Below are positions 781 to 57,495 of a DNA stretch of 58,190 nucleotides, piece after piece. The DNA lies in the IMG/VR virus record IMGVR_UViG_3300042934_000137, positions 1 through 58,190 of that record; one strand, given 5' to 3'. Positions within the stretch are counted from its first letter, which is position 1. Each line of letters starts with the position of its first letter. The DNA is from a virus. Its lineage: Duplodnaviria > Caudoviricetes. The position numbers were made by a program, and so were the translations under genes. The notes under the pieces are model-generated. The model searched no databases and had not been told where the DNA came from. It saw only the letters and a list, made by a program, of their open reading frames with translations.

Positions 781-812
781 GGCATCTATTACATGCTGTG
801 TAAAATATGCGA
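781..812 (-). promoter_or_regulatory. Variant of the 32-bp promoter motif
   Basis: TCGCA-TATTT-TACAC-AGCA-TGTAAT-AGATGCC, same spacing as the other copies. Confidence 0.65.
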
Positions 813-17916: not shown

Positions 17917-18951
17917 CTAGCCTCGAGTGTCTCGACGGCTGACGAACAGATCGGTAACCGGAACGCTAGAGACGAAATCCAGAACGTCTCGGGCTGCGAG
18001 CTTTCCGCTCTCGACACGCTTTCGCTGAGCCTCGAGATCACCGAGGGCCTTGTCGACTCGCCTGTTGTACCGACCCTTACCCCCATAGAGGCCAATGCCG
18101 ACACCTCGGCCTACACGCTCTCCAACGGTCGCTCCGCGTCCTTCTCGAGCTCGCTTGAGGACCGCAGTGTTTCGCTGGTTCTGGTCGAGAATAGCGCCAG
18201 CGACACGATTGCCCTTCTTGCGAACTCCCCACTTCATGCCCTTGACGCCGTAGTGGAGTAGTTCTTCTGGACTCCCGGGCTTGTCGTTGTACGACATACC
18301 CATTCCTTCCTCTAAGTGTTGTGCCTCGTTGACATCGTATGCCATCTCAGTAAGTCCACCGAAGACGATGTCGTCTTCCATCTCCTTGGCGGTGGGTTCT
18401 TTGACGACCTTGAAACCGAGCTTCTCGTAGATATGACGCGCATCCGGAGAGTTCTTGGGGACCTCAAGAGTGAGCTTCTTAAAACCCTCTTGTCGTCCAA
18501 ACTCGGCGCCGGCCTTCATGACTGCGGTGGCATAACCCTGACCTCGAGCCGACTTGTTGATACCAAGCCACACCAGATTCAGTTCGTCCTTGCTCTTCTT
18601 CGCTACTTGAGCTTCGCCGATCTTCTTACCCGAGCCATCATGGATTGTCAGATATGCCTGGTCCGCATAACTCTCTCGGAACTTCTTGCTTCTGCGACCC
18701 ATGAAGTTTTGGAATCGGGACGGAGGAATTTTGCTTAGACGAACCTCTTCTCCAGATGCGGTCTTACGAACGACCGAGTCTGGACCGAGAGATTTAAGCG
18801 GAGCCTTCTGCGAAGACCGATCCTTTCGGACACCCCACTTCATGCCCTTGACGCCGAAGTGTGTTATCGGTTCGTCATTGATGTTTGCGAGCTGAGTCTC
18901 GAGAATATCGAGAAAGCTCCCATACACATTCTCGAGATTGAACTGGTCCAC
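17917..18951 (-). CDS. HxGVKGMKWG-tagged GNAT acetyltransferase fused to a second tagged basic module
   Basis: GNAT motif A (LGINKSARGQGYATAVM) and motif B (ARHIYEKLGF); two tags; probable internal start near 18297-18303 after GAGGAAGG. Confidence 0.8.
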   Translation of the reverse strand: MDQFNLENVYGSFLDILETQLANINDEPITHFGVKGMKWGVRKDRSSQKAPLKSLGPDSVVRKTASGEEVRLSKIPPSRFQNFMGRRSKKFRESYADQAYLTIHDGSGKKIGEAQVAKKSKDELNLVWLGINKSARGQGYATAVMKAGAEFGRQEGFKKLTLEVPKNSPDARHIYEKLGFKVVKEPTAKEMEDDIVFGGLTEMAYDVNEAQHLEEGMGMSYNDKPGSPEELLHYGVKGMKWGVRKKGNRVAGAILDQNQRNTAVLKRAREGRGATVGERVGRGVGIGLYGGKGRYNRRVDKALGDLEAQRKRVESGKLAARDVLDFVSSVPVTDLFVSRRDTRG

Positions 18952-18982
18952 TCAATATCTCCTTTGCTGCCTTGTTTGGCGG

Positions 18983-19633
18983 CTAGAAGTTCTTGAGGAA
19001 CTCAGACGCCGACATCCCAGGCTTGATGTTGTTGGCGTTCTTAAGCTGAGAAAATGCGGTCTTGCCCGCCTTGAGGATAGCCTTGTCGACACCACTTCGA
19101 TGCGCCCACATGGCACCACCTGCAATCATCGCTGCAGCCGCGGAAGCGTATTGTGGGTTTCCTCGAACGTAGTGACTGATGCCGCGAGTGGTCTTGGCAG
19201 CGCTACCGGCGACGTTCTTCCGCTTCCGCTCTCGCTTGGCTTTAGACGCGTGAACCGCCATGTCCTGTTTTGCGAGATGGTGATCGAAAGCCCTCTTGTA
19301 GTTCGGGTCCTTCTTGCTCAGCGTCTCGACCTTAGCCTTGATCAGCTTTCGACGAGTGCCGGCGCCATCTCCGTAGAACATCTTAGCTCGAGCGAATTCG
19401 CGAGCATCCTTCAGAGCGGCCTTGTTGGTGCCTCGAGAAACACCTTCGGGACGATCCTTTCGGACGCCCCACTTCATGCCCTTGACGCCGAAGTGCTCGA
19501 TAACATCTTCGGAGAAATCGGAGACGTCCAACGCAGTGAATCCAGCAGCTTCGCTGCGCCGCTTAAGATCATACTCAAGCTCTTCTCTCGACGAATATGC
19601 CGAAGGAATTATCATACCAGGAGTTCTAGTCAT
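18983..19633 (-). CDS. HxGVKGMKWG-tagged basic protein
   Basis: EDVIEH-FGVKGMKWGVRKD then a Lys/Arg-rich helical region and a hydrophobic C-terminal helix. Confidence 0.75.
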   Translation of the reverse strand: MTRTPGMIIPSAYSSREELEYDLKRRSEAAGFTALDVSDFSEDVIEHFGVKGMKWGVRKDRPEGVSRGTNKAALKDAREFARAKMFYGDGAGTRRKLIKAKVETLSKKDPNYKRAFDHHLAKQDMAVHASKAKRERKRKNVAGSAAKTTRGISHYVRGNPQYASAAAAMIAGGAMWAHRSGVDKAILKAGKTAFSQLKNANNIKPGMSASEFLKNF

Positions 19634-20366
19634 GCTTCACCTCTTCTCTGAATGGAGTATCGTTGAGTCCCAGTTCTCGGTGGAGGGTTTCTCCCCACAC
19701 CGTCACAAAACTAGGCGGGTTTGAACTCCAATGGTACTGAGAAAATAGCTCAGCTTCAACCTCTTCTCGCATTCCGGATGTCGCTGCATAATCCGAAACC
19801 TTAGACGAGAAAAGATGGCTAGGTATTCCATCTCTTTGTGCCGCTTTAATCGCCGCTTTAATTGCTTTATCCCGGGCCTTGATGTTTCCGCCGACAATTC
19901 TCGGACCAGCGAACCCTGTTTTCACTTTTTGTTCGGCATGAAAAATGGCATGTGCCGATTCATGAGTAAGGAAAGCTCGGACGTTACCACAATCTTTCCC
20001 GAACCAACCAATGTCTTCGCCGTGTTTTAGTTGCTTTCGGACGTCGGTATGGGCTGTGTAAATAACGCCCTCACGCCGTCCTGGCGTACCCTGTACAAAA
20101 CCGATTGTACCCGTGCCATACTCCGGGTGCCCTGGTTCTATAGATTTGAGTGCGCTGATTTTAAAACCGTACCTCTCGCCGATCAGAGAAGCTACTTCTT
20201 TACCGGCACTTTTTGTCGATTGCGGTAGCGTCGAATCGATCGTTGGTCCTGGTCCTTGGAGTCGGTATACACCGTCTTCTTGATCCTTTCGGACGCCCCA
20301 CTTCATGCCTTTGACGCCGTAGTGAAGAAGCTCTTCGGGCGACGCAGGCTTCTTCAAATACGTCAT
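19626..20366 (-). CDS. HxGVKGMKWG-tagged zincin-like metallopeptidase
   Basis: EELLH-YGVKGMKWG; HExxH (THESAH) with downstream S.YA...E..AE.F third-ligand pattern. Confidence 0.7.
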   Translation of the reverse strand: MTYLKKPASPEELLHYGVKGMKWGVRKDQEDGVYRLQGPGPTIDSTLPQSTKSAGKEVASLIGERYGFKISALKSIEPGHPEYGTGTIGFVQGTPGRREGVIYTAHTDVRKQLKHGEDIGWFGKDCGNVRAFLTHESAHAIFHAEQKVKTGFAGPRIVGGNIKARDKAIKAAIKAAQRDGIPSHLFSSKVSDYAATSGMREEVEAELFSQYHWSSNPPSFVTVWGETLHRELGLNDTPFREEVKHD

Positions 20367-22105
20367 TCGAAGGCCTCCTTGTGTGCCTTGTATGCGACGT
20401 AAGCGTCCATCATTGCGGCGACGTTATCGATCTTTTCGTCATAGCGCTTCTTCAGGAGCTTTCTGTTTCCGTTCGTGTCTTCCATAGTAATGGCGTTACC
20501 CATTGCGAAAGACATCAACCCTTGGTCGAATCGGAGCAGGCGTTCTTCACTAAGAATCTTCAGTTCTCCGAGAGGAACAGATTCCGTCTTAGAACCCTGA
20601 ATAACCTTCTCGATACCGAAAGGCCCGTTCTCTTGACCCCAACGTGTAACGAATTCTTTTGCGTTGTATGGATCGTAACCAAGAGAACGAACGTCGTATC
20701 CACGCTCCTGAATATGCTGATCGAGATCTTCGTAGACCTCCATCATGTCGAGAACGGTGCCCTCAATGATATGAAGACTTCCTTCTCTGATGAACTCGTC
20801 GTACTTGGCACGCATAGCTCCGGGAAGCTTCTTCAACGTGAGTGACGTAATATAGCTTCGAGTCTTGACACCGAAACCTCGTCGCAAAGGGAAGAGGAAT
20901 GTGAAAGCACAGAAGTCGTCACCCTGCGAGAGGTCGGCGCCCAAAGCACAAGGCATGTCATCAAAGTTCTGACGACGGTGAGGAAGCGTCTCTTCGTAGG
21001 TAAAGAAGTAGGTGTAGCCCTCCATCGGAATGCCGAACCGCTTAGCGAGAATATCGTTCCTTGCGGCCGGGGCCTTCTCGGCTCGTTCGACGTCGAGCTG
21101 GTAGGTCTCATAACTAACAGTGAGACCAAGATTTGGGTTTGCCTTTACCCACATCGCTGGATTGGCGACTTCTTCCAGATCATCCAATTTGTAATGGAAA
21201 ATAGAGATGTGTGGGGCTATGTACTCGCCCTTTAGGATCTCCATCAACTCCATCTTGATAGTGTCGCCGCTGCCGTTACGAACAGTTCCTTCCGAGCTAA
21301 CCGCGAGAATCATGTAATCCTCGAGCTTGGAAGCACCCTGCTCTACGGCGCCAATGACATCCTCTCGGAGGTCTCCGGAAAGCCACTCATCAATAGTGTT
21401 GCATTTGGTTCTAAGGCCCTGCAACTTAGTGATCGCCATAGGACGAATCTCGAGCAGAGAGTTCGTAAGAAAGTTCTCAATGCCCTTCTTCGTTGGGATC
21501 AGCTTCTGTCGAAGAGCTCTGGCGCCCGTGGTGTTCTGAAGGGATCCCTCAGTCAAGAATTTAAACAAGGGGCCACGGGCTCGAGCGATCGCAGTCCGGA
21601 TGGGACTCATGATCTCTTCAGCCTGCTTCATCGTTGGAGCAGTTGTGATCTGGTGCGTTGTCGACGTATCAATCGTCAGAATATAGGCCTGTACGAGAGA
21701 CTCATACAAGGACTTGGCTGCACCTCTAGCGACGATGAGATACTGCTTCTTAGTTAGACGAACCTTGATAGTCTTGGTGACGAAATGACCCTCACCACCA
21801 GTGGTCGACGGTATGTAGACCTGTCTATCAATGAAGTAGTACCAACCAAATAACTGTTCGCCCCAAAGCTTGAAGGACGGAAGCAACGTCAAGTCACTAC
21901 CATCCGTCAACGTCATCTCAGACTCGCAGAAAAGGATCCAGCCTTCTACCGGTCCAGGATCGTAGTAAATGTTCGGGTTGGCGATGAGCTGATCGATGCG
22001 ATTCATCTCCATCGCGATCTCCCGATTCACAGGAATATCGCCCCGAAGCACAGCCTCGCGGAACTGCCCGTAATACCTGGGTGTTGCCGTGTTCGACAAG
22101 CCCAT
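20363..22105 (-). CDS. terL: Terminase large subunit
   Basis: Start MGLSNTATP; Walker A variant VARGAAKS, Walker B TIDE, nuclease GADLS...D and KIDNVAA. Confidence 0.93.
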   Translation of the reverse strand: MGLSNTATPRYYGQFREAVLRGDIPVNREIAMEMNRIDQLIANPNIYYDPGPVEGWILFCESEMTLTDGSDLTLLPSFKLWGEQLFGWYYFIDRQVYIPSTTGGEGHFVTKTIKVRLTKKQYLIVARGAAKSLYESLVQAYILTIDTSTTHQITTAPTMKQAEEIMSPIRTAIARARGPLFKFLTEGSLQNTTGARALRQKLIPTKKGIENFLTNSLLEIRPMAITKLQGLRTKCNTIDEWLSGDLREDVIGAVEQGASKLEDYMILAVSSEGTVRNGSGDTIKMELMEILKGEYIAPHISIFHYKLDDLEEVANPAMWVKANPNLGLTVSYETYQLDVERAEKAPAARNDILAKRFGIPMEGYTYFFTYEETLPHRRQNFDDMPCALGADLSQGDDFCAFTFLFPLRRGFGVKTRSYITSLTLKKLPGAMRAKYDEFIREGSLHIIEGTVLDMMEVYEDLDQHIQERGYDVRSLGYDPYNAKEFVTRWGQENGPFGIEKVIQGSKTESVPLGELKILSEERLLRFDQGLMSFAMGNAITMEDTNGNRKLLKKRYDEKIDNVAAMMDAYVAYKAHKEAFE

Positions 22106-22121
22106 CACCAACCTCCTTTCA

Positions 22122-23081
22122 TCAACTACCGATAGCCTTGCGAGAGACGTCAATGACGTTCCTCGAGACGTACGCGTTCGTTCGGAATGGACCGCTGTTG
22201 TTCATCTTGGCGTTGACTGCAGCACCGAGAATGAGAGGGACCGCAATCTTTCCGACTTCGCCCAAAATCTTGAGCGCTGCCATTCGCTTTTCAGATCGCC
22301 GCTTGGCATCTTCGTTGATGACGTCACGAAGCTTCTTCTCCAACTCGAGGCGCTTGCGCATCTCCTCCAGTCGCTTGCTGGACATCTTGTGTAGACCGCC
22401 GGCCTTGTTGATGGCCTGTTGGTATTCCGACTGAGTCTTGTTGGTCTTGTAGCTGAGTTTCTCAGCTCGGTTCAACATCTCAGGCTTGTTGATCCCAATA
22501 CGACCGTCTGGATCCCTTCGGATTCCCCACTTCATGCCCTTGACGCCATAGTGAGCGAGCTCGCTCATTCTCACCTCCTCCGAGTAATATCGTTCCTTGA
22601 GTCGAAACTCGGTGCCCTCGTAATCGCCGGTCCAGAGAGCGATGCGATCGAAGGTCACCCAAGAAATATTGCGCGTCCAGTCGTCCTTTGTCACGAGAGG
22701 TTTAGCCGGAGTTTCCGGGTACCCCAGCGTGAGATGTGGAGTCCATGACGGGTACTGCTCTATCGAGTGGTAAGCCCGGAAAATGTTCGGATCTTGGAGG
22801 AGGTATGCTCGAGCTTCCTCCATCATCCGAGTGTCTCGCTGCTTGAAGAACACGACATCCGCGCGCTTCTCGCCTAGTAAACCACGTCGATCGACTTCTA
22901 GGCCGAACTGATAGAGCGAGGTGTTGGTGACGTGTTGCAGGTAGCTCGTGATCCGTCCCAGCTCGTCGATGTCGCTCACATCCCCGAGGAATAAGAGCGT
23001 CAGATGAGGGACCTTCTCGCTTGAGATCTGCCAGACGTAGTCTTCCTCAGAAGGAATGGCTACGATGGCGACTCCAGTCAC
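22122..23081 (-). CDS. 2H phosphoesterase fused to an HYGVKGMKWG-tagged module
   Basis: Two HxT motifs (VPHLTL, TPHLTL); probable nested start MSELAH-YGVKG at 22568 with GGAGG RBS. Confidence 0.8.
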   Translation of the reverse strand: MTGVAIVAIPSEEDYVWQISSEKVPHLTLLFLGDVSDIDELGRITSYLQHVTNTSLYQFGLEVDRRGLLGEKRADVVFFKQRDTRMMEEARAYLLQDPNIFRAYHSIEQYPSWTPHLTLGYPETPAKPLVTKDDWTRNISWVTFDRIALWTGDYEGTEFRLKERYYSEEVRMSELAHYGVKGMKWGIRRDPDGRIGINKPEMLNRAEKLSYKTNKTQSEYQQAINKAGGLHKMSSKRLEEMRKRLELEKKLRDVINEDAKRRSEKRMAALKILGEVGKIAVPLILGAAVNAKMNNSGPFRTNAYVSRNVIDVSRKAIGS

Positions 23082-24630: not shown

Positions 24631-25329
24631 CTACCGGCCTTCCTGGTCTCCCATTTTGGCCGGAGCATCGAAGTCCTGGAACGTGTTGGGCGCGATCGCC
24701 TTCAACTGAGCCAGAACGAGTTGAGCCACCTGACGGAACTCCTCGTCCGCGGTAGGAGAGAGCCGCTTCCAGAGCATCTCTCGCCAACAACGCATGTTGC
24801 CGGAGATGAGGATCTTGGTTTCGGTTCCGCTGACGAGTGCGTGACGAGCAGCCTGGCGGGCCTTCTTGCGTTCGGTACCCTTTCCAGCCAGGTCAGCCAT
24901 CACAGCCTCGTAAGCCTCTCGTCCAGCCTTGATGGCGAAGAGAAGCTTCTCCCGAGCATCCTTGTCGATCCCGACGAGACCGGGGTGTTCGGCGAATGCG
25001 AACGAACCGACATCGACGTAGCGCTGACTCACCTCGCTGTAACCGAAGTGACGGTGGCGAATGTGCTCGTGCGTGAAGTTGCGAGTAACGCCATCGATGT
25101 AGATCGTGGCGCTTGCGTGTTCCATGACCGAGTAGTGACCCTGATCGAGAATGTTGCCGAGGTAGCCCTCGTTGGTGGCAGTCTTCGGGTTGGGTCGAGG
25201 CCATGATTCATAGCAGAGCCGTCCGGCTTCCTCGGCCAGTTCGTCGGAATCGGTCACGAGATCATTGTGAGGGATGTAGCCCGGGATGTGACCAACGAGA
25301 GTCGTGACAGCAATCAGCTTGGCACGCAT
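24631..25329 (-). CDS. thyX: Flavin-dependent thymidylate synthase
   Basis: GHYSVMEH and RHRHFGYSEVSQRY ThyX signature. Confidence 0.93.
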   Translation of the reverse strand: MRAKLIAVTTLVGHIPGYIPHNDLVTDSDELAEEAGRLCYESWPRPNPKTATNEGYLGNILDQGHYSVMEHASATIYIDGVTRNFTHEHIRHRHFGYSEVSQRYVDVGSFAFAEHPGLVGIDKDAREKLLFAIKAGREAYEAVMADLAGKGTERKKARQAARHALVSGTETKILISGNMRCWREMLWKRLSPTADEEFRQVAQLVLAQLKAIAPNTFQDFDAPAKMGDQEGR

Positions 25330-25340
25330 AGAGAGGGGTC

Positions 25341-25832
25341 CTACTTTCGATGTGACGGCGTTACGCCGTTCTGTCCTTGATAGTGGTTCCCGTTACCCGG
25401 TCCGTAGAGAACGTCGGTCGGCTCGTCCAGGTGCATAAAATAGACCTGTCCGATAGGCTCGCCGATGACTAGACGAATCGCGTCTTTGTGATGCAAGTTC
25501 TTCAGCTCGAGAGTGATGTTGCCGAAGAAGCCAGGGTCAATAAGTCCCGCGGCTTCAATCTGCAAACCTTCTCTTGCGTGAGTACTCTTACCCACCACAA
25601 ACCCAACGAGAAAATCAGGCATGGCAAACGTCTCGATCGTCCCGCCCAAGCAGAACTCTCCGGGGCTGAGAAAAACGGCGTCGTCGTTGTAGGGAATGTC
25701 GTGTAGCACCATCTGCGAGAGATGAAGGTCGATTGAGACCGGCTCAATCTTCAGAGGCTTGTCGTCTTGACGACGAACCAAATTTCTTGTGCGGCAGAGT
25801 CGCTCAAGAGTCTGCCTACTAAGGATTGACAT
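25341..25832 (-). CDS. dcd: dCTP deaminase (trimeric dUTPase superfamily)
   Basis: P.SIDLHL, GKSTHAREGL, AGLIDPGFFGNITLE and YQGQ motifs. Confidence 0.85.
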   Translation of the reverse strand: MSILSRQTLERLCRTRNLVRRQDDKPLKIEPVSIDLHLSQMVLHDIPYNDDAVFLSPGEFCLGGTIETFAMPDFLVGFVVGKSTHAREGLQIEAAGLIDPGFFGNITLELKNLHHKDAIRLVIGEPIGQVYFMHLDEPTDVLYGPGNGNHYQGQNGVTPSHRK

Positions 25833-26258: not shown

Positions 26259-26592
26259 GCGATTCCTCCGGTTCGTGCCCGGCATAGGATCGCATCGCGG
26301 CGATGGCGCCTTCGTACAGCGCTTCGACTCGGTGAGCTGCTTCGAGAGCTTCACGCTTGGCATCGAGAAGAAGGTTCTCCTTGGCCAGGCGTTCTTGCTC
26401 GAGCTTCTCTCGCGAGGATCCCAGCTTGAGGTAGTGAGAAATTACCTGAGACGAAGCCGTCCCGTTTCGCATCTGTGTTTCGGCGAGATCGGTGGCTAGA
26501 GCGATCAGTTGGTTCTCTCGTGCCTCAGGAGTCGTTGCCGGCGGGCGCCTGCTGGGCGGTTCTACCGGCTCGGATCTGCGGCGGCCTGCCAA
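26236..26592 (-). CDS. Putative terminase small subunit
   Basis: 118 aa helical, TTG start with AAAGGAG RBS; near the putative cos site and overlapping the HNH gene; function from position only. Confidence 0.5.
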   Translation of the reverse strand: MAGRRRSEPVEPPSRRPPATTPEARENQLIALATDLAETQMRNGTASSQVISHYLKLGSSREKLEQERLAKENLLLDAKREALEAAHRVEALYEGAIAAMRSYAGHEPEESHDYYDED

Positions 26593-26628
26593 AGCTTCAA
26601 CTCCTTTCAGATTATAGGGTTAGGGGGT

Positions 26629-26670
26629 GGGTGCCCCACGACCAAGGGGAAGTGTAGTCGTGGGGCACCC
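26629..26670. terminator. Perfect 14-bp hairpin after the head fiber gene
   Basis: GGGTGCCCCACGAC / GTCGTGGGGCACCC. Confidence 0.6.
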
Positions 26671-26691
26671 GCTGTCGCCGACGGTAATACG

Positions 26692-26928
26692 TCAGCTGGT
26701 ACGCATGAGACCCGCGGTACGCAGCTTGGCGAGCAGCGCGTTGAAGTCAGCCTTCAGCCCGGTGACGTCGGTCGCGGTGGAATCAGCCTGCGGCGCCGCG
26801 GGAGTGGCCAGCGGAACGAGCGGAGTGACCCCGTCGGCCTTGAACAGGGCGAGCTGAAGGGGGAGAGTGTTGGGAACAGACGCGGACGAGTTGACCACGA
26901 CCGCCTTCGTGACGCTTCCTTGGGACAT
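26692..26928 (-). CDS. Head fiber / decoration-like protein
   Basis: QADSTATDVTGLKADFNALLAKLRTAGLM head-fiber trimerization motif. Confidence 0.7.
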   Translation of the reverse strand: MSQGSVTKAVVVNSSASVPNTLPLQLALFKADGVTPLVPLATPAAPQADSTATDVTGLKADFNALLAKLRTAGLMRTS

Positions 26929-27095
26929 TGCTTACCTCCGGTGAGACTTCCGAGTGGTTTGGGAGTAGTTTGTAACAAGAAGGTCTTTGATCCAGGCGGG
27001 TTGCTTGGTACAGTCACCAGCGTCGGCCCGGCTCTACCCGATAGCGCTCACCCTGATGCCTCCAACCAGCCCGCCGGGATCAAAGACCTTCCGCG

Positions 27096-27170
27096 AAAAT
27101 TCCCCCCGGGGAAAAAATGGGGACGGCGGCGATGCGGAGGGGGGGTTACTTTCGCGACCCCCCCTCCCCC
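27096..27170. other. Putative cos / genome-end region
   Basis: Minus-strand CGCCGCCGT (27123-27131) between a CCCCCCGGGG dyad and an 11-bp G/C inverted repeat (27136-27167), at the replication/packaging module boundary. Confidence 0.55.
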
Positions 27171-27182
27171 GTCATCGATGAC

Positions 27183-27425
27183 TCAGGAATTCACAACAAC
27201 TTTGCGGTGAACTCCTGATGCATTGATACGAACAATCTCTTCAATCGCATCTTCGAGAGCTTGATCCTGATCTGCATCAGACAAAGCTTCCGAAGTACGA
27301 ACGATCCTTGCCTGTAGTGCCAGCGTGTGGTGGCCAGCAGCTGTGTCATAGGCATACCACTCATCGAACTGAGTAGAAGGATCGAATGGATTGTCCACTG
27401 TAGTGAGCATGTGTTTGGCCATCAA
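27183..27425 (-). CDS. Hypothetical protein
   Basis: 80 aa, MLTTVDNPFDP...FDEW; overlaps the RNAP stop codon. Confidence 0.75.
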   Translation of the reverse strand: MMAKHMLTTVDNPFDPSTQFDEWYAYDTAAGHHTLALQARIVRTSEALSDADQDQALEDAIEEIVRINASGVHRKVVVNS

Positions 27426-30118
27426 TCCTCCTCACTCAAGCTCTTCTGTAGAATGGACACTGAGACACCCAATTGTTCCGCGATCTCGCCCTGTGTGAAG
27501 CCTTGGTTAGCCATAGAGCGGGCACGAGCCATCATGCCACTACTCATGGTGGTGCTAGACCTAGGTGTAGCCAACTCCTTGATCCGCTCGATGTTGGCGT
27601 GAGTGAGAATCTGGTTCAGCTTGTGATTGCTGATAGCACCAGCTTGAATAGCATCCCACTCGGCATCAGTGATGTCGAAGTCGTCTTTGCCTGCACCTAC
27701 CCTAAGACGAGCCGTCTTCAGAGCTAAGAACTTAATCTTCTTCTCTTCAGACTTCTCCATGTCTGGATACTCAGCACGCTTGGCCTTGTATAGGGCGTTG
27801 GCTATGACCTGGGCTTGTCTTTCGAGGGGGGCGTTTCTGAGGGCGGCGTTCAACTTCTGATTGAGGGAGGCCACTTCCTTAGCATAGGCGGTCCTTGCTG
27901 AGGGAGAGTAGGGGATGTTCTTGATGGCCACCATGTTCTTACGTGCTTCGTTCCCCATACCCTTCAACTGGTTGGAGTGCTCAGCATAGATGGTCTCGAT
28001 GCGCGTCTTGTGTGGAGACACAAGCTTGAAAGCGTCATCGGTTTCAGCCAGGAGCTTCTTACCCCTGTCCATACGAAAGACCGTCTTACCAGAAGTTGGG
28101 TCTACGTATGTAGCGCCCGTCTCCGTGTAGATCTTCTTTCCCGTAACAGGGTCTACCTTGTAGCCCTGCTTTCGTTCGCGAACATCCACCTTTCGACCAG
28201 CCCTCGAGATGAGGGTTGCCGCACCACCAGTCTTCTTTCCCTGATACTTCTCCATGAGTGCAGGGATTCCGTTGTCCTTTGCAGACTGACGGTAATTGAG
28301 CTTGTGCTTTTCTGCGTCGATGACAACCATTGAATGACGGACTGCTCGAGCAAGTTCGTCAGCGTTGGCGCCACCGATGGTCATGTCTGTGATGAGGTTC
28401 GATACGATCCCCATCTGCATACCCTTTTCACGAGGCGTCATCAGCTTCATGCCAGGGTATTCCGGATACCGAGCCTTAGCGTCAAAGTCCTCAAGACCCT
28501 TTAGTGCAGGCGAGCTCTTGACTTTCCCGTGATTGTTCGGGATGACAAGGACTGTGTCCCCATCGAAGTCAGCGCCAGACAGTCGCTCAGCCACCCTGCT
28601 GTTGATGCCGATGGCATCGGTTGCATCCTTGAGGAGCTTCTTTGCTTGAGCATGGCGGTTGTTCACGGTGAGTTCAGGGATCTCGAAAGTTCCACCGTGA
28701 GGGAAGCGAACAAGAACTACGCGTTCACCATTCTTGAACGTGGGCGCGTAGACTTCAGTTTCCTTCAACGTGTTTACGGGAAGGATGACCTTGTTCGCCT
28801 GACGAGGAAGAGCCGCAGCCTTCAGATGTACTGCCGACGAATCGACATCATCAGCATAGGCCTCGAGCAACCGCTTCTTGACAGCGGGATTGTTGAGACT
28901 CATGATCTCGTCGAGTTCACGACGCTTTCGTTCAGCGGTCGCGGTCAGCTGTGTCTTAGCAAGGTTTGGACTCTGCTTAGACAGGAACTGTGACGACAGC
29001 GATCGAGACCACTGCTCCCAACTACCTTCCTCGTTCACCATGTTCATGACCGAGGTGACCTTCTTGCCGTCGGGCGTGGTGATCTGCCGACGAATAACAG
29101 CACCGAATGGGTTGTCTTCGTCGAGCTTCCCATCCTTCGTTGTCTGCATCTTCTTCAGAGCATCGAGTTTGTTACCCGTATTGCTCTTGTTCGTGTTGAA
29201 CATGAGATCAACGCCATCAGGCAGATCATCCTTGTACATCGCCATACCCTTGATGTAGTGCGTACCGTCAACAGCGATACGAACCTGAGCATAGCGAGCC
29301 TTACCCATCGACAGATCATTGACGCCAGGTCGGACATAAACAACACCGTCAGCGTCAGCGCCACCCTCTTCCTTGTAGCGAACCCCAACGCGCTTGGAAT
29401 CAATCGAGATCGGGGGCTTGATCGCCAGGAAGGACTTGCCTCCGTCATTTGAATATCCAGCAACGCTCTGGATCTTGTCGCGATTCTGAAAGACTTCGGC
29501 ATACTCGGTGCCGGGCTTAACCAAGACCTTCATCGTGGTCTCATGCCTCGTGCCCAGCTGCTGTACCTTTACGTAGTACAGCTTGTAGTCCTCTTCCTTA
29601 GTGAGGCGAGAAATAGCAGCTCGGAGTTTGGTGTCGCTGACGTTCATGTAGTGCTCGGTACCAGTACCGACGTCGAGATATCCCTTCTTCTCGACCTGGT
29701 CCTTGAGGAAGTTAGAGGTAGACTCCAGAACATCAACTCGAGCTTTTGCGCTCGGAGCGAGAAGAGCACGAACAGAGGATTCAGGAATCCCCATCTTCTC
29801 ACCAATCTTGACGTTGGACCATCCATGCTCCTTCAACCTCTGGGCCATGGAAATATCCGCGGCCTTCTTGGCGTTGCGAGCGATGGTTACGGCGTTGCGA
29901 AACTCCGTGGTCGTCCAGGGCTTTCCGTTCTCGGTGTAGAGAGACATGCCCTTAGCAATCTCTCCGTCACTCAGACCCTTTGACCGAAGATCGGCGACAG
30001 TGCCGAGAAAGTCTCGACCACGCTGTCCTGGATCCTCGCCGCTTCCCCACGGGTAGCGTCCCGATCGACGCAGGATGCCGTAGTGGGCGAGGTAGTTCTC
30101 CTCAGGGATGATCGCCAC
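27422..30118 (-). CDS. Single-chain two-barrel (YonO/cellular-RdRP-like) RNA polymerase with HTH domains
   Basis: AQVRI, KGMA, RFPH and LSGADFDGD motifs; HTH-like segments at both ends; N-terminal LAH-YGILRRSGRYPWG. Confidence 0.8.
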   Translation of the reverse strand: MAIIPEENYLAHYGILRRSGRYPWGSGEDPGQRGRDFLGTVADLRSKGLSDGEIAKGMSLYTENGKPWTTTEFRNAVTIARNAKKAADISMAQRLKEHGWSNVKIGEKMGIPESSVRALLAPSAKARVDVLESTSNFLKDQVEKKGYLDVGTGTEHYMNVSDTKLRAAISRLTKEEDYKLYYVKVQQLGTRHETTMKVLVKPGTEYAEVFQNRDKIQSVAGYSNDGGKSFLAIKPPISIDSKRVGVRYKEEGGADADGVVYVRPGVNDLSMGKARYAQVRIAVDGTHYIKGMAMYKDDLPDGVDLMFNTNKSNTGNKLDALKKMQTTKDGKLDEDNPFGAVIRRQITTPDGKKVTSVMNMVNEEGSWEQWSRSLSSQFLSKQSPNLAKTQLTATAERKRRELDEIMSLNNPAVKKRLLEAYADDVDSSAVHLKAAALPRQANKVILPVNTLKETEVYAPTFKNGERVVLVRFPHGGTFEIPELTVNNRHAQAKKLLKDATDAIGINSRVAERLSGADFDGDTVLVIPNNHGKVKSSPALKGLEDFDAKARYPEYPGMKLMTPREKGMQMGIVSNLITDMTIGGANADELARAVRHSMVVIDAEKHKLNYRQSAKDNGIPALMEKYQGKKTGGAATLISRAGRKVDVRERKQGYKVDPVTGKKIYTETGATYVDPTSGKTVFRMDRGKKLLAETDDAFKLVSPHKTRIETIYAEHSNQLKGMGNEARKNMVAIKNIPYSPSARTAYAKEVASLNQKLNAALRNAPLERQAQVIANALYKAKRAEYPDMEKSEEKKIKFLALKTARLRVGAGKDDFDITDAEWDAIQAGAISNHKLNQILTHANIERIKELATPRSSTTMSSGMMARARSMANQGFTQGEIAEQLGVSVSILQKSLSEED

Positions 30119-32529: not shown

Positions 32530-33756
32530 TCACTCGCCTTTCCACTGATTCACGAACCGCTTCTCGCTGAAGTTCTTCTTCTTGCGTAGCGAATCACGCA
32601 CGGCGTTGTCGATGACGGAGTTGCTGGTGAGGTTGTAATAATAGAGGTCTTTGTAGGGCGTGGTGAGTCGATCGATTCGCCCATGAGCCTGCTCCCACTG
32701 CTTGTACGAATATGTTCTAGAGAAGAACACAGTCGCGTTAGTTGTGATGCAGTTCCAACCCTCGGCGCCGGCGGTGTACTGGACTAGATATAGCCACCGG
32801 TCAGTCTCTGGAACGGGGTGATGGTTCTTACCGTTCCACTCAGCAACTGTAATATCGCTAGCCAGTGTCCTCAGCATCTCCAGCTCGTAATTGAAGTTGT
32901 AGAACACAATCAGCCGCGGGTGTTTAGACATCAGAGACTTGACAGCCTGCAACCGTGATGAGTCGGAATTTACAACCCGCCTCATCACAGCGAACATCTC
33001 AGCTACGTCCCGAAGGGGTCTGTCCTTATAAACATGCCATCGCTGTTTATAGACCCGTTCCAGTAGTTGCTCGTCATAGGGGAGTACCACATCCACAGGG
33101 TGCCTAGTGGTGTGTCTCTCATACGGCATCTCAACCAAGATCTGGTTGCGTAGTCGCACGAGACGTCCAACACCCACAAACCGGTCGACCTTAGGGAATC
33201 TGGTATATGAGTTGAACTTGACGTGATTGTCGAGGAACTCAGTCCGATTCTTGAAAAAGCCGTTGGCAATGAAGACGGGAATATAGTCCAGCCAGGTGTC
33301 CCCTGGAGTCGCAGACAACAGAATCCATCTGTTACTCTTTGCGATCTTAAGGAACGTCTTAGCCCACTCCCCGCTACCGACCAGTCTTTGCTCGTCGAAT
33401 ATGAAGAAAGCACCCTTGACGTCGATGTAGCGCCCGATGTTGTTCCAGGAGTCGACGGTGAGACGACCCGAGGTCGTAGCTCCAATCTCCTTCCAGACTC
33501 CATACTTGATGAACTCCTTCTCCCAGTCGAGATCATCACGCTTCTTTGCCGTAGTGATCACGTAGACATCGGCGTCTGCTTCGACCTTCACGTAATATGC
33601 AACAGCCGTAAGGGACTTCCCCGTTCCTACACCACCAACAAGGATCTTGCCGCTGTCTAACTCATTGACGGCGTCGTGCTGGTGGCTTTGCAGCTGGACC
33701 GGAGAAGCACCAACCCTTACCGCATACTCATGAAGATCGGTCTTAGCTCGCGCCAT
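32530..33756 (-). CDS. SF2 (SNF2-like) DNA helicase
   Basis: GVGTGKS, FDEQ, LSATP, EGWN and QAHGRIDR motifs. Confidence 0.9.
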
Positions 33757-34546
33757 AGTCCTTACCGCAGGTCTGGCAGACCATTCCCTTGGTCACACGA
33801 GAAGGTCCTTGGCAGGTCGGGCACTTGATCTTCTTCTTGAGTCGCTCGATCTCCCCTTCATCAAGACCCAACATCCGCATGTTTTCGACGATGGTCTTGA
33901 CGCTGTTCTCGTACACCGACCGAACAACTTGACGAGCCTCTTGTTTTAGCTCGTACATCTTGAACACGTGCTCACGGATATGAGCTGCGATCTTCTCAAT
34001 CAGGTCAAGACCGTCGATTACCACCCAGGATGAATCAATCTGAGCAATATACCCTTCTTGTACTTTGTAGTGGAAGCCGAGAGGCTTGTCCTCGAATCGG
34101 GTCTCCTTCACTCGCCGAGCTCTTTGCAACCCCCATTCGGGCGTAACATCGAGGAAGAAGGTCACGTCAGGATATAACCCATTAGTCGCCCACTCCGAGA
34201 GCTCTCGAATCTCGTTTCGAGGAAGACCTTCAGCATGGCCCTGATATGCCACACTCGAGGCAATGTAGCGATCACAAATAACCACCTCACCTCGAGCCAG
34301 TGCTGGAGCGACAATACTCTCGACGTGATCGGCTCGATTTGCCGCGAGAAGCAGAGCCTGAGTTTTCGCCGACATGGGTGGACCAAGACGATCGAGAAGA
34401 ATCTCCCGAAGCTCATCCCCTAGCGGCGTACCACCAGGTTCTTTCGTCAGGATGAAGGGGATCTCCTTCTCCTTAAGAGCTTCGGCGAGCTTCAGTGCTT
34501 GAGTGGTCTTACCGGAACCTTCGCCACCTTCAAAGACAATGAACAT
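33743..34546 (-). CDS. tmk: Thymidylate kinase with C-terminal CxxC-CxxC extension
   Basis: [21 protein letters not shown] and CDRY..SS.AYQG motifs. Confidence 0.92.
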
Positions 34547-35978: not shown

Positions 35979-36013
35979 CACGGTAGACTCTCCTGAGGGG
36001 CAAAAATGAAAAT

Positions 36014-36277
36014 CTATGCTTCGAGCAGATCCAGAATTTCCTTGCAATGCTCGCATTTGTCGGGACACCAGCGGTGCACGATCATCTCGTAGTTGGTTTT
36101 CTGGTTGCAGTGCTGGACTAGGGGGAGGGTCCGAAGAATATCGTCCTTCGCGATCTTCAGTTCGAGCTTGTGAATGGCGATGAGGTTTCGGATCTTCTTC
36201 GAGACCGCGTAGGCGAACAGTAAGTCACCCACAGCGAAGATGACGAAAACCAGAGCGATCCAGAAAGCCAAAGACAT
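36014..36277 (-). CDS. Membrane protein with Cys-rich tail
   Basis: Start MSLAFWIALVFVIF; AAAGGA RBS. Confidence 0.65.
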   Translation of the reverse strand: MSLAFWIALVFVIFAVGDLLFAYAVSKKIRNLIAIHKLELKIAKDDILRTLPLVQHCNQKTNYEMIVHRWCPDKCEHCKEILDLLEA

Positions 36278-36301
36278 CGAGGGGTCCTTTCGAGATATGG
36301 C

Positions 36302-36337
36302 GAAACCCAAAACCCTTGTGGGGGTCTTGGGCGTGAG
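36302..36337 (-). terminator. Cassette-family hairpin
   Basis: CCCAAGACCC-loop-GGGTTTTGGG-TTTCG. Confidence 0.7.
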
Positions 36338-36338
36338 A

Positions 36339-36563
36339 TCAGTACTCTCGTTCTTTGTGAAGCGTCTCGTATCGGTTTCGCACGTGGAAGTAGTCGTCAC
36401 TGGCAGCATCCCACCCAGCGCTGAACCCGGTCTTCCAACCAAGGTCGTCGGCCTCGCGAGTGGCGATTTCGATGTTCCTGGTGGCAATCCTCTGGGTGAT
36501 CAGGTAGGTGGCAATAATGCCGGTGACGAGCGCAACCACGGCAACAACGACGTAGAGCATCAT
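36339..36563 (-). CDS. Cassette membrane protein, 74 aa
   Basis: MMLYVVVAVVALVTGIIATYLI N-terminal TM helix; own promoter. Confidence 0.75.
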   Translation of the reverse strand: MMLYVVVAVVALVTGIIATYLITQRIATRNIEIATREADDLGWKTGFSAGWDAASDDYFHVRNRYETLHKEREY

Positions 36564-36577
36564 AACGTCCTTTCGTA

Positions 36578-36609
36578 GGGTCTCATTATAAGCCATGTAT
36601 CCTACGCGA
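36578..36609 (-). promoter_or_regulatory. Conserved 32-bp promoter motif
   Basis: TCGCG-TAGGA-TACAT-GGCT-TATAAT-GAGACCC. Confidence 0.8.
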
Positions 36610-36610
36610 G

Positions 36611-36641
36611 GAAAAGCTAGAGCCCGTGTTAGGGGCCCTAG
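36611..36641 (-). terminator. Cassette-family hairpin
   Basis: CTAGGGCCC-CTAACAC-GGGCTCTAG-CTTTTC. Confidence 0.65.
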
Positions 36642-36648
36642 TGGTGAT

Positions 36649-36924
36649 TCACTCCTGAGGGGTCTCGGGGTTGAACTTCTTAACGATCTCTTGAATCATC
36701 TCCTGGTTCTTCTGGTGTTGTTCGAGCAGGTTCTTAGAGAGCGAGGCGTTCATTCGCAAAGCGGCGATGATCTTGTAGACGTTCTCCTTCGGAAAGCCAT
36801 AGGCTTCCGCGGGCGTCTCAGTCATCAGTGCTTCGATCTTGTTCGCGATCTCGTTCCCGTCAGAAATGATCGAGTGGACCAGAGCCAGGGCGGTGAGGTC
36901 AGAGTCGATGTTAAAGTCCATCAT
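36649..36924 (-). CDS. Cassette coiled-coil protein, 91 aa
   Basis: MMDFNIDSD...; AAAGGA RBS; own promoter. Confidence 0.7.
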   Translation of the reverse strand: MMDFNIDSDLTALALVHSIISDGNEIANKIEALMTETPAEAYGFPKENVYKIIAALRMNASLSKNLLEQHQKNQEMIQEIVKKFNPETPQE

Positions 36925-36939
36925 ATAATCCTTTCGGAG

Positions 36940-36971
36940 GGGTTTCATTATACTGCGTGTAATCCCCGCGA
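36940..36971 (-). promoter_or_regulatory. Conserved 32-bp promoter motif
   Basis: TCGCG-GGGAT-TACAC-GCAG-TATAAT-GAAACCC. Confidence 0.8.
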
Positions 36972-36973
36972 GG

Positions 36974-37255
36974 TTATGCAGGATCGAAGTTTCGAATGAA
37001 CTGAGCGTGGCTGTAAACACCAAAACCGTACTTTTTTCTTACGATCCAGTCACCGACAAAGCCACGACCCTTACGCTCGTTTGGGTCCTTAATCGTCAAA
37101 ATATAGCGCTTCATCTTCCCCGTGGCGACGTTTCGGTTGTCCCTCTCTTCGATCTCTCGAACGTCCGACCCAGACCATCTGGCGAGCTCTTCCATGTTTT
37201 CTTCGGTGATTTGGAAGGCGTCTACGTAAACCGGCTTGAGTACAAAGCGAGCCAT
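36974..37255 (-). CDS. GD[WY]-family small protein, paralog 1
   Basis: KPVYVDAFQIT...VGDWIV...F...F. Confidence 0.75.
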   Translation of the reverse strand: MARFVLKPVYVDAFQITEENMEELARWSGSDVREIEERDNRNVATGKMKRYILTIKDPNERKGRGFVGDWIVRKKYGFGVYSHAQFIRNFDPA

Positions 37256-37277
37256 TAGAAATATCCCTTCGAACAAC

Positions 37278-37312
37278 GAAACCCAAAACCCGTGTAGGGT
37301 CTTGGGCGTGAG
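37278..37312 (-). terminator. Cassette-family hairpin
   Basis: CCCAAGACCC-TACAC-GGGTTTTGGG-TTTCG. Confidence 0.7.
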
Positions 37313-37322
37313 GTTGATGGGG

Positions 37323-37529
37323 TCAGTTGCTCTCGTTCAGCTTCGTCTCGAGCTTCTTGAGGCCGACGTACATCACTCCCATGGCTGCAGCACTGAGGAC
37401 AGCTCCCGTAGCGAAGGCCGTCGCGTGGACGATCTTCTGGTGTTTGGGGCTGGACTCGTACTTCAGTCGCTGGTTGGTGACGAAGTCGGACTCGATGAAG
37501 CTCTCGGGGAGCAGATCAACGATTCGCAT
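37323..37529 (-). CDS. Cassette protein with one hydrophobic helix, 68 aa
   Basis: MRIVDLL...ATGAVLSAAAMGVMYVGLKK...ESN. Confidence 0.75.
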   Translation of the reverse strand: MRIVDLLPESFIESDFVTNQRLKYESSPKHQKIVHATAFATGAVLSAAAMGVMYVGLKKLETKLNESN

Positions 37530-37545
37530 TATGATTCCTTTCATA

Positions 37546-37610
37546 GGGTCTCATTATACGCCGTGTAATATATGCGAAACCCAAAGCCCCCGTAGGGGCC
37601 TGGGCATGAG
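37546..37610 (-). promoter_or_regulatory. Fused hairpin plus 32-bp promoter junction
   Basis: Hairpin 37580-37604; its TTTCG tail overlaps TCGCA-TATAT-TACAC-GGCG-TATAAT-GAGACCC (37546-37577). Confidence 0.8.
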
Positions 37611-37611
37611 A

Positions 37612-37860
37612 TCAGTTGTTGGTCAGATTGGGGTCTCTCATGAGGATGAGGTCGACGCCCTTGATGGTGAAGACTCCGACGTAGCCCGCGTGCAGTCGAC
37701 GCAGTCCATCCTGCGTCACCTCGAGCAGGATCTTGTTGTCGTAGTGCTTGTGCATTGCGAACGCAGTGATTCCTGCCGCGGTGACGCCGGCGGTTGCGGC
37801 GATGACGATGGTCTTGTTGTCGGTGAGCTTCTTCTTGAGGGCGAGCAGCTTCTCGTTCAT
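37612..37860 (-). CDS. Cassette protein with one hydrophobic helix, 82 aa
   Basis: MNEKLLALKKK...IVIAATAGVTAAGITAFAM...TNN. Confidence 0.75.
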   Translation of the reverse strand: MNEKLLALKKKLTDNKTIVIAATAGVTAAGITAFAMHKHYDNKILLEVTQDGLRRLHAGYVGVFTIKGVDLILMRDPNLTNN

Positions 37861-37881
37861 GACGATTCCTTTCGTAGGATA

Positions 37882-37946
37882 TGGTCTCACTATACTCCGT
37901 GTAATATCTGCGAAACCTAAAACCCTTGTGGGGTTCTAGGCGTGAG
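37882..37946 (-). promoter_or_regulatory. Fused hairpin plus 32-bp promoter junction
   Basis: Hairpin 37916-37940 then TCGCA-GATAT-TACAC-GGAG-TATAGT-GAGACCA (37882-37913). Confidence 0.8.
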
Positions 37947-37947
37947 A

Positions 37948-38127
37948 TCACTGTCGAGGGATACCGATATAAGTCCAAGCACGAACGTGAGCGAACTCGC
38001 CGAGGGCTTCACAGGCTTCTTGCAACGTGTCATAGAATCCGACAATGCGTCGGGATTCTGAATGAATCGTGCAACCATCCTCGTCCCACTCGACGACGTT
38101 CGAGTCGTCTCGGTCCTTGTTGATCAT
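37948..38127 (-). CDS. Cassette acidic protein, 59 aa
   Basis: MINKDRDDS...; AAGGAG RBS; own promoter. Confidence 0.7.
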   Translation of the reverse strand: MINKDRDDSNVVEWDEDGCTIHSESRRIVGFYDTLQEACEALGEFAHVRAWTYIGIPRQ

Positions 38128-38145
38128 AATGGTCTCCTTCATATA

Positions 38146-38177
38146 GGGTCTCATTATAAGCCGTGTATCTCATGCGA
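38146..38177 (-). promoter_or_regulatory. Conserved 32-bp promoter motif
   Basis: TCGCA-TGAGA-TACAC-GGCT-TATAAT-GAGACCC. Confidence 0.8.
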
Positions 38178-38187
38178 AAAATGAAAG

Positions 38188-38233
38188 ACCGTGTATGGGG
38201 TGAGAGCCCCGAAGGACCCCCACCCCACACGGT
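38188..38233 (-). terminator. Hairpin insulating the cassette array
   Basis: Plus strand ACCGTGT..GGGGTG / CACCCCACACGGT; T-rich tail on the minus strand. Confidence 0.6.
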
Positions 38234-38240
38234 GCGGCGC

Positions 38241-38405
38241 TTAGATATCGGCGATCCGTTCGTTCAAGTGACGCGTACACAACCAGGCCGGAACCTGCTT
38301 ATTGTTCACGTCCTCCTCGTACGGACACAGCGTGAGTTGAACCTCACCTTCACAAGGAAGCGAAACTATCCATGCGTCATCGCACTCCACCCGAATCTCG
38401 TCCAT
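38241..38405 (-). CDS. 54-aa Cys-containing protein (not in the ORF track)
   Basis: MDEIRVEC...C...CPYEEDVNN...LCTRH...DI. Confidence 0.55.
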   Translation of the reverse strand: MDEIRVECDDAWIVSLPCEGEVQLTLCPYEEDVNNKQVPAWLCTRHLNERIADI

Positions 38406-38487
38406 CCAGAACCGCCTCACAGGTCGTTGTCTACAACCTGTAAATAACGACGTGGGCGGAGGATGCCAAACTCAGGCGGGTGTTATG

Positions 38488-38787
38488 TCATCGAAGCGAT
38501 ACCGTACGGAAGTAAACCTTCGACTCCTCATCGAGAGACTCCCAGAAGAGAAACATCTCAGGCCTCGAGACCGGGCGTCCGGGAACGCTGAAGAAATGGA
38601 TCAGCTCAGCAAGGCTGTTGATGTTTGCGAGGTACTCGGACGTAGGAACGATTTGCATCGTACGCCCAACACAGACGTCGTAGATATGGGCCCGTTCAAG
38701 GTTCTTGACGAGCCAATCCTTCGTCTCATCCGGGGTTCCGTTGAAGACCGGTCGCATGGACTTGGTGAGTACGGCATCGAAAAACAT
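38488..38787 (-). CDS. Hypothetical protein
   Basis: 99 aa, AAAGGAG RBS. Confidence 0.7.
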   Translation of the reverse strand: MFFDAVLTKSMRPVFNGTPDETKDWLVKNLERAHIYDVCVGRTMQIVPTSEYLANINSLAELIHFFSVPGRPVSRPEMFLFWESLDEESKVYFRTVSLR

Positions 38788-54016: not shown

Positions 54017-54048
54017 GGGTCTCACTAAGACCCATGTAATTTGTGCGA
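54017..54048 (-). promoter_or_regulatory. 32-bp promoter motif variant
   Basis: TCGCA-CAAAT-TACAT-GGGT-CTTAGT-GAGACCC. Confidence 0.7.
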
Positions 54049-57480: not shown

Positions 57481-57495
57481 GTATTGTCGGGGGTA

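Follow-up and report, generated by a model that had tools for sequence, protein, structure and literature searches.

Two-barrel RNA polymerases transcribe all cellular genomes and need sigma or basal factors to find promoters. Phage members of this lineage include YonO of the Bacillus prophage SPβ, a single chain of 839 residues that is a proven processive DNA-dependent RNA polymerase; its authors describe its promoter recognition as unknown and raise promoter finding by single-chain phage two-barrel enzymes as a question (Forrest et al., 2017, PMC5467207). Thermus phage P23-45 encodes a virion polymerase fused to its tape measure protein and a second, non-virion polymerase, each with its own conserved promoter motif (PMC10770324), and the two-barrel protein gp66 from crAss-like phage phi14:2, which has 2,180 residues, is packaged, injected with the DNA and transcribes early genes, whose transcripts are described in that preprint as having no common upstream motif (bioRxiv 10.1101/2020.03.07.982082). 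Here we describe an 898-residue phage protein encoded on the minus strand of IMG/VR record IMGVR_UViG_3300042934_000137, the whole 58,190-nucleotide (nt) stretch of which is called the window below (gene coordinates and those of its features are in the table). Overall, the gene is probably best explained as a single-chain, two-barrel DNA-dependent RNA polymerase belonging to the family of phage 1706 orf75, Scap1 gp55 and Circum gp98.

This family has already been cataloged. The three proteins just named, all members of PHROG 4291, are full-length homologs of the window polymerase (38.5-58% identity), with which they share an N-terminal tag, helix-turn-helix (HTH) segments at both ends and the catalytic motifs; their genes occupy the same place, last but one and after an exonuclease gene, and their genomes carry the same promoter-like motif. 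There is no difference in kind between them and the window protein, whose copy comes from an uncultured soil phage. The PHROG 4291 profile matches it over its full length (E = 0, 1313.6 bits, residues 6-897 against profile positions 8-908 of 909). A tblastn search recovered PHROG 4291 relatives in 250 deposited phages, all below 60% identity and 249 of them covering at least 80% of the protein; the organism names point mainly to Arthrobacter (95), Gordonia (55), Streptomyces (54) and Lactococcus (13), with fewer records named Curtobacterium, Rhodococcus, Microbacterium, Faecalibacterium, Siphovirus or Caudovirus, and cultured members come from Streptomyces, Arthrobacter, Gordonia and Lactococcus hosts. 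Among sequences clustered at 90% there are at least 8000 homologs at E ≤ 1e-10, the closest among the matches listed being a metagenomic protein 92% identical, and at 50% clustering the family comprises 2269 clusters (E ≤ 0.001), of which 900 pass E ≤ 1e-30. RefSeq names the product "RNA-dependent RNA polymerase," while GenBank mostly uses "helix-turn-helix DNA-binding domain protein."

The literature has also touched on the family. Koert et al. (bioRxiv 10.1101/842583) reported an HHpred match of the family alignment to RNA-dependent RNA polymerase (RdRP; 95.68%), HTH domains at the N- and C-termini and a D-x-D-G-D loop, and proposed polymerase activity; the passages of that preprint devoted to the protein contain no occurrence of "promoter," "repeat" or "transcription" and make no mention of virions. 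Ruprich-Robert and Thuriaux (PMC2919709) included a phage-1706 family in the YonO-like proteins and set out eight residues as invariant. A literature search for bench work on PHROG 4291, with most subscription journals outside its reach, turned up nothing besides genome announcements and the preprint of Koert et al. The novelty claimed for the gene in the preliminary description was thus overstated: it is an ordinary additional member of a cataloged, widespread and computationally described family, and the window adds no new principle.

The catalytic signature is intact. The open reading frame (ORF) begins with a GTG codon preceded 4 nt upstream by AAGGAGG and overlaps by one base the TAG stop of the preceding exonuclease gene; both it and every motif that had been named in it lie exactly where first placed. 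The metal-binding stretch LSGADFDGD occupies residues 513-521 (nt 28556-28582), and the upstream motifs AQVRI (277-281), KGM (290-292) and RFPH (471-474) were all found. In a family alignment of 91 members at 44-54% identity, 51 of which were also scanned against Pfam, Q278, R280, K290, G291, R471, P473, H474, D517, D519, G520 and D521 are invariant, and the best-conserved block of 20 residues, 501-520 (mean column identity 0.83), surrounds the metal loop. The second barrel therefore carries the D-x-D-x-D loop of the double-psi beta-barrel superfamily in its three invariant aspartates, D517, D519 and D521. In Rpb1 an arginine and a proline (R446/P448) lie upstream of this loop, and a basic pair (Rpb2 K979/K987) comes from the other barrel (PMC2919709). 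Here, the invariant R471 and P473 precede the loop and are both set by hhalign on the R-x-P of YonO, while R280 and K290 fall on adjacent strands of the first barrel in the structural model (276-283 and 287-295) and would be the equivalent of the basic pair.

An AlphaFold model of the whole protein has a mean predicted local distance difference test score (pLDDT) of 87.2 and a predicted TM-score of 0.79. Foldseek matched it to 32 solved chains at E ≤ 1e-3 and, among the matches listed, all are two-barrel polymerases: QDE-1 (1.2e-10), the Thermus-phage gp64 type (2.6e-8), RDR2 (5.9e-8), P23-45 gp96 (1.7e-4) and Pol IV (2.1e-4), with a bacterial beta-prime subunit (1.3e-3) and crAss gp66 (3.9e-3) just over the threshold. 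When model residues 235-732 were superposed with VIA-align, RDR2 (7w82) gave Z 17.6 (root-mean-square deviation, rmsd, 4.0 Å) over 348 residues, QDE-1 (2j7n_A) Z 17.2 with an rmsd of 4.7 Å over 379 residues, and the Thermus-phage gp64/gp62 type (8f72_B) Z 13.8 over 354 residues; residues 432-632 aligned with Rpb1-type largest subunits at Z ~11. Named matches in the BFVD viral structure library were phage "RdRP" proteins, a P23-45 protein and giant-virus RNA polymerase subunits. The check for two barrels proposed in the preliminary description thus came out in favor of them, the alignment of residues 235-732 with the RDR2, QDE-1 and gp64-type polymerases sustaining the two-barrel interpretation, and a single-chain two-barrel fold is supported by the model for this region.

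The best structural matches, QDE-1 and RDR2, are cellular RNA-silencing polymerases whose similarity covers both barrels and the connector at only 11-14% sequence identity; they come from eukaryotes, and their templates are RNA or single-stranded. Neither is known to have promoter-reading HTH modules. The shared fold says nothing about template choice. Thermus phages, too, have single-chain two-barrel enzymes, namely the non-virion P23-45 gp64 and P74-26 gp62 and the virion form gp96, which rides on the tape measure protein where the route proposed here is an N-terminal tag; the terms "helix-turn-helix," "YonO" and "Actinobacteria" are absent from PMC10770324. YonO shows the same collinear R-x-P-H, D-x-D-G-D and G-x-x-S-N-x-I-T motifs but ends in a cysteine-rich stretch, and the listed YonO relatives have no HTH-family Pfam match on record, unlike the window polymerase. 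The life-cycle role of gp66 is the one proposed below for the window polymerase, although the structural match is weak and, unlike gp66, the family travels with a sharply conserved motif. At 898 residues the protein is, as first remarked, far smaller than gp66 or the N4 virion RNA polymerase (about 3,500 residues); it is not the smallest of its kind, since YonO has 839 residues and gp64-type chains ~595.

The three HTH-like segments that had been pointed out, at residues 48-58, 99-117 and 873-888, are present, and all adopt a helix-turn-helix-helix arrangement in the model (helices 32-46, 51-57 and from 70; up to 97, 102-109 and 113-120; 860-871, 876-883 and 887-897). The first two form tandem units at 32-120 joined by a long helix, and the third lies at 860-897. 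Pfam backs the second segment (HTH_23 at 91-119, Sigma70_r4, PF04545, within 91-120) and the third (Sigma70_r4_2 at 872-888 and HTH_3 at 871-892, overall 869-893), whereas the first has no Pfam match of its own in the polymerase. Sigma70_r4_2 (PF08281) barely passes, at 26.2 against 25.7 bits summed over two stretches; across the family, 50 of 51 members have HTH_23 and 47 have Sigma70_r4_2. Folded alone, residues 31-160 reach a pLDDT of 89.1. The second unit superposes on the DeoR DNA-binding domain (Z 5.3, rmsd 1.6 Å, 49 residues), a match that fits a small HTH domain and falls short of proof, and sigma region 4 chains match the N-terminal module weakly (Z 4.4-4.7, rmsd 7-9 Å). The presence of three predicted HTHs is hence supported by sequence profiles and modeled secondary structure, not by a strong fold match. 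A small-terminase-like role was considered separately and rejected: the PHROG matches are weak (E 0.0011-0.009) and confined to the C-terminal HTH.

The window carries a recurrent motif that could serve as the polymerase's promoter. On the coding strand it reads, as a 31-nt pattern, TCGCA, 3 nt, ATTACAC, 4 nt, TATAATGAGACC, the third box being TATAAT followed by GAGACC; the preliminary description had it at 32 bp, and its tripartite, recurrent character holds at a length closer to 31 bp. With up to three mismatches the pattern matches eight times (seven distinct, the window ends overlapping) against 0.00 expected, and a 21-nt version matches 10 times (nine distinct) against 0.03 expected. All copies are on the minus, coding strand, each followed within ~25 nt by a Shine-Dalgarno sequence and a start codon. 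A first cluster, at 58113-57692 and 360-330 with a further copy at 54048, opens the early region; a second, at 38177-36579, heads a tightly packed gene string whose last gene is that of the polymerase, the motif itself being the nearest promoter-like element upstream of that gene in the window. Neither the 31-nt nor the 21-nt pattern has a copy in the ~26-kb structural gene block, so that its genes would be transcribed by read-through or by another enzyme. A terminator-like hairpin (36641-36617) lies directly upstream of the copy nearest the polymerase gene string; a scan of 36-38.6 kb showed two motif copies with such a hairpin just upstream, and hairpin-like repeats adjoin other copies.

The geometry is not that of a −35/−10 promoter: the two upstream boxes stand 4 and 12-13 nt from TATAAT, and a sigma-70 scan of 36000-38600 called three sites against 1.7 expected, none pairing the motif's own TATAAT with a −35 box. 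The motif recurs on the coding strand in Streptomyces phage Scap1 (six copies), in Arthrobacter phage Circum (~7 distinct copies among eight regex matches, one being a chance overlap), where one copy lies directly upstream of the endonuclease-exonuclease-polymerase block, and in Lactococcus phage 1706, whose 11 copies have AGAAAG after the hexamer where the window has GAGACC. Across 80 metagenomic loci, each comprising the gene and up to 10 kb on either side, a loose pattern matched 15 times on the polymerase strand and once on the opposite strand. A fixed pattern, applied to five additional whole viral records, matched 15 times in four of them, always on the polymerase strand, with none on the opposite strand and none for a reversed-pattern control. 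In control searches with a stricter pattern, phiC31, sk1 and L5, assumed here to be without the polymerase, gave no match. SPβ, which encodes YonO and not a PHROG 4291 protein, gave one match, equal to its control, and 1706 gave one. In the genomes compared, the motif travels with the polymerase across host phyla, which fits recognition by the phage enzyme.

Two further observations concern individual copies. G+C-rich hairpins followed by T-runs lie upstream of several of them (36224-37307 and 57445-58166, minus strand), giving terminator-promoter-Shine-Dalgarno-gene cassettes with very small genes. A weaker copy at 781-812 (minus strand), with TGTAAT in place of TATAAT, falls inside a 302-residue ORF (451-1359); the alternatives are an internal start serving the downstream part and over-calling of the ORF.

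The N-terminal L-A-H-Y-G string, which the preliminary description had singled out, is present and conserved as L-A-H-Y-G...W-G at residues 10-25. The tag pattern occurs within the first 80 residues of 120 of 121 proteins (the query and the homologs listed) and also in 1706 orf75, and residues 1-30 are predicted to be disordered (pLDDT 46-52). A related element may be DUF7211 (PF23847), a 25-residue motif present in five copies in four proteins (41-83 bits) whose genes lie around those of the terminase and portal: when a hidden Markov model (HMM) of the polymerase tag was run on the minus-strand proteins of the genome, these four ranked directly after the polymerase itself. The capsid precursor (13911-15899, minus strand, 662 residues) is a protease-spacer-capsid fusion with six L-x-H occurrences, of which five fall in residues 154-279, the stretch that separates the protease from the capsid part, against 22 occurrences in 13,749 residues genome-wide. 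Matching the beginning of the tags, these L-x-H stretches are candidate sites of maturation; their enrichment fits a putative head-protease site and so a possible head-loading function for the tag.

The DUF7211 carriers (17917-23081, minus strand) are a 2H phosphoesterase with an internal tag at residue 175, an H-E-x-x-H protein, a 216-residue protein and a GNAT acetyltransferase with two tags, so that the motif, H-Y/F-G-V-K-G-M-K-W-G, is fused to unrelated parts in each, and Scap1 gp06, encoded just upstream of its terminase, also has one copy. From their sequences these proteins look like swappable head cargo; a literature search with the DUF7211 peptide string found nothing related. Long polymerase forms occur in other metagenomes: P0133 (1789 residues, a portal-like N-terminus and a polymerase core) and P0148 (1809 residues) have ~1050 residues in place of the tag and first HTH, and P0157 (1062 residues) has a phrog_24711 (2H-like) domain ahead of a complete tagged polymerase. 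Each forms a single-member cluster and may be a gene-calling or assembly artifact, and neither P0133 nor P0148 was used as evidence. An Atlas search returned the same family and one RdRP-bearing cluster at 0.87, a lead only.

Taken together, these features suggest the following scheme. The enzyme very likely polymerizes RNA on the double-stranded DNA of the phage, as its core motifs and modeled fold indicate. On balance, it would dispense with a sigma factor, since two HTHs at its N-terminus and one at its C-terminus would dock it on the conserved promoter, read as a TCGCA box, 3 nt, an ATTACAC box, 4 nt and TATAAT-GAGACC. Early and middle gene cassettes would begin with this promoter, among them the string closed by the gene of the polymerase itself. 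More tentatively, and with the odds somewhat against it, copies made late could be loaded into the head via the disordered L-x-H-Y-G tag, enter the cell with the DNA and start transcription there. Reading of the tripartite motif by the HTHs is plausible from co-occurrence and strand bias across phages, and so, indirectly, from the "structural protein" label that GenBank gives 1706 orf75 and from the conserved tag with its half-match to DUF7211, is travel of the enzyme in the virion; these mechanistic extras, built-in promoter reading and virion delivery, form a coherent picture drawn only from comparison. It is doubtful that every part holds at once, that is, that a self-contained machine of ~900 residues, with tandem N-terminal HTHs for the two upstream boxes and a further HTH at the C-terminus, is packed into the capsid by way of a protease-site tag, is ejected and fires from the tripartite promoter.

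The family is very common, has cultured members and comes with an obvious candidate promoter. Should the scheme prove true, it would offer a compact model of promoter recognition in the two-barrel lineage and possibly an orthogonal expression tool. Among known virion RNA polymerases the protein would then be the smallest, and among two-barrel enzymes the first to have sigma-like promoter recognition covalently built in, acting on a tripartite promoter nearly unchanged from Lactococcus phages to actinophages.

Several results weigh against this interpretation. For the core, global TM-scores to solved structures are just 0.28-0.31, which we attribute to the extra terminal domains and to domain placement. 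A phmmer search of PDB sequences with the protein gave no match, and a PDB search with the family profile gave HTH proteins and designed helical repeats only, with none for the core. Pfam RdRP (PF05183) stays below its cut-off here (13.7 against 23.8 bits, E = 0.025, residues 508-606), although 19 of the 51 scanned proteins of the family match it at E ≤ 0.01, the best at 2.9e-5. The claim that the motif order marks a two-barrel polymerase stands on the fold match to QDE-1 and RDR2; the direct sequence kinship with YonO that went with it is marginal, since hhalign against a 34-sequence YonO profile is weak (E = 0.043, probability 1.2%, 115 columns, collinear over the three YonO motif stretches given above) and the only match to the YonO sequence by itself was a spurious one of 19 columns. 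For the HTHs, Foldseek with the N-terminal module alone found nothing at E ≤ 0.001 (best 0.61, an IstA transposase), and an exhaustive VIA search found one chain at Z ≥ 5, a weak match. In just 12 of the 80 metagenomic loci was the motif seen in the 10 kb upstream of the gene, and it had no match in one of the five further whole records. As for the virion, the polymerase tag has no match to Pfam DUF7211 at E ≤ 1, the half-matches of the tag HMM score just 5-7 bits, the shared part being the first nine positions (E-x-x-L-x-H-Y-G-hydrophobic), and the name "structural protein" comes, for 1706 orf75, from an annotation in GenBank. YonO, finally, is a late-gene polymerase, and the relevant passages of its description (PMC5467207) do not report it from virions.

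The last point leads to an alternative in which the polymerase has a non-virion, YonO-like role. The third motif box is a perfect host-type, consensus −10 hexamer, so that the host RNA polymerase together with a phage regulator could explain the motif and part of its conservation across phyla: the host enzyme would read TATAAT early, a phage regulator on the two upstream boxes would perhaps help or block it, and the phage polymerase would be a middle product for another gene class, for example the structural genes. Such a division of labor would suit the late-gene transcription by YonO and the structural block without a motif copy, which needs a second promoter class or read-through; the phage also encodes a WhiB-like factor, and the support for a virion polymerase is indirect. 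The spacing of the upstream boxes, which are not at −35, and the failure of the sigma-70 scan to call any copy speak against it, as does conservation that extends downstream of the hexamer. The motif architecture is moreover kept with the polymerase from actinophages of ~55-60% GC to an AT-rich Lactococcus phage, and 1706 orf75 carries the label "structural protein." We regard this alternative as unlikely.

It is very improbable that the enzyme is an RNA-dependent RNA polymerase, as its RefSeq name has it, or an RNA-priming replication enzyme rather than a transcriptase. Its nearest solved folds are indeed QDE-1 and RDR2, and QDE-1 has both DNA- and RNA-dependent activity (PMC9508822), but in a double-stranded DNA phage there is no RNA template known for it to copy, those phage relatives assayed so far (YonO, gp66, gp64 and gp96) are DNA-dependent, the phage DNA polymerase already includes a region matching primase PHROGs (residues 114-416), and HTH modules with a conserved promoter-like motif suit transcription better. 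That the protein is only a DNA-binding regulator with a polymerase-like core that is no longer catalytic, as the usual GenBank name and the restriction of above-cut-off Pfam matches to HTH families might suggest, is hardly credible given the invariance of the metal-binding aspartates, the R-x-P pair and the first-barrel basic residues at such divergence, the concentration of conservation around the metal loop and a high-confidence core model that superposes on active polymerases.

Table. Positions in the window of the polymerase gene, its parts, the copies of the promoter-like motif and a putative regulator gene
Feature	Position	Strand	Basis
Whole gene: 898-residue single-chain two-barrel RNA polymerase homolog (PHROG 4291)	27422-30118	minus	ORF call, PHROG profile match
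Conserved N-terminal tag, residues 10-27 (L-A-H-Y-G...G-R-Y-P-W-G-S-G), predicted disordered	30038-30091	minus	Pattern search, model
Predicted N-terminal DNA-binding module, residues 31-145, two tandem HTH units	29684-30028	minus	Pfam, domain model
Catalytic core, residues 235-732, as aligned to solved two-barrel polymerases	27923-29416	minus	VIA-align, Foldseek
First (beta-like) barrel region, residues 244-363, Q278/R280/K290/G291	29030-29389	minus	Model strands, invariant columns; inside 235-732
Second (beta-prime-like) barrel, residues 441-527, R471-x-P473-H474 and D517-F-D519-G-D521 metal loop	28538-28798	minus	Invariant columns, Pfam RdRP, alignment to Rpb1-type subunits
C-terminal HTH, residues 857-898	27425-27550	minus	Pfam, model helices
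Motif copy nearest upstream of the co-directional gene string ending in the polymerase gene	36579-36609	minus	Repeat and pattern searches
Motif copy	36941-36971	minus	2 mismatches to 31-nt pattern
Motif copy	37547-37577	minus	0 mismatches to 31-nt pattern
Motif copy	37883-37913	minus	1 mismatch to 31-nt pattern
Motif copy	38147-38177	minus	2 mismatches to 31-nt pattern
Motif copy, most divergent	54018-54048	minus	2 mismatches to 21-nt pattern
Motif copy	57692-57722	minus	1 mismatch to 31-nt pattern
Motif copy	330-360	minus	0 mismatches to 31-nt pattern
Motif copy, same DNA as 58083-58113 because the window ends overlap	40-70	minus	31-nt pattern
WhiB-like factor	45099-45386		PHROG scan

The window is a complete siphophage genome of ~58,043 bp. 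Its DNA was recovered from two soil metagenomes and was listed for no RNA data set, and bases 1-126 are identical to 58044-58169, an end-to-end identity that indicates either a circular assembly (circularly permuted) or a terminal repeat. The minus strand carries nearly every gene. Read along it, small early genes are followed by a primase-polymerase fusion (50592-46705), the WhiB-like gene and further small genes, then by thymidylate kinase, helicase, HNH and Cas4/RecB-like exonuclease genes, the polymerase gene (30118-27422) and an 80-residue gene. After a gap of ~0.8 kb come HNH, dCTP deaminase, ThyX and connector genes, the gene of the 2H-phosphoesterase protein and that of the large terminase, downstream of which lie three more small proteins, the portal, the protease-spacer-capsid fusion and the tail genes. 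A PHROG scan of the window proteins recognized no small terminase. In the deposited relatives 1706, Scap1 and Circum, a single gene separates the homologous gene from the right genome end, and the physical genome ends of relatives fall at the position of the ~0.8 kb gap, which lies at 26363-27183 between the 80-residue gene and the HNH gene. ThyX and dCTP deaminase (24631-25832) and thymidylate kinase (33743-34546) are all encoded on the minus strand, so that the phage would supply its own dTTP pathway.

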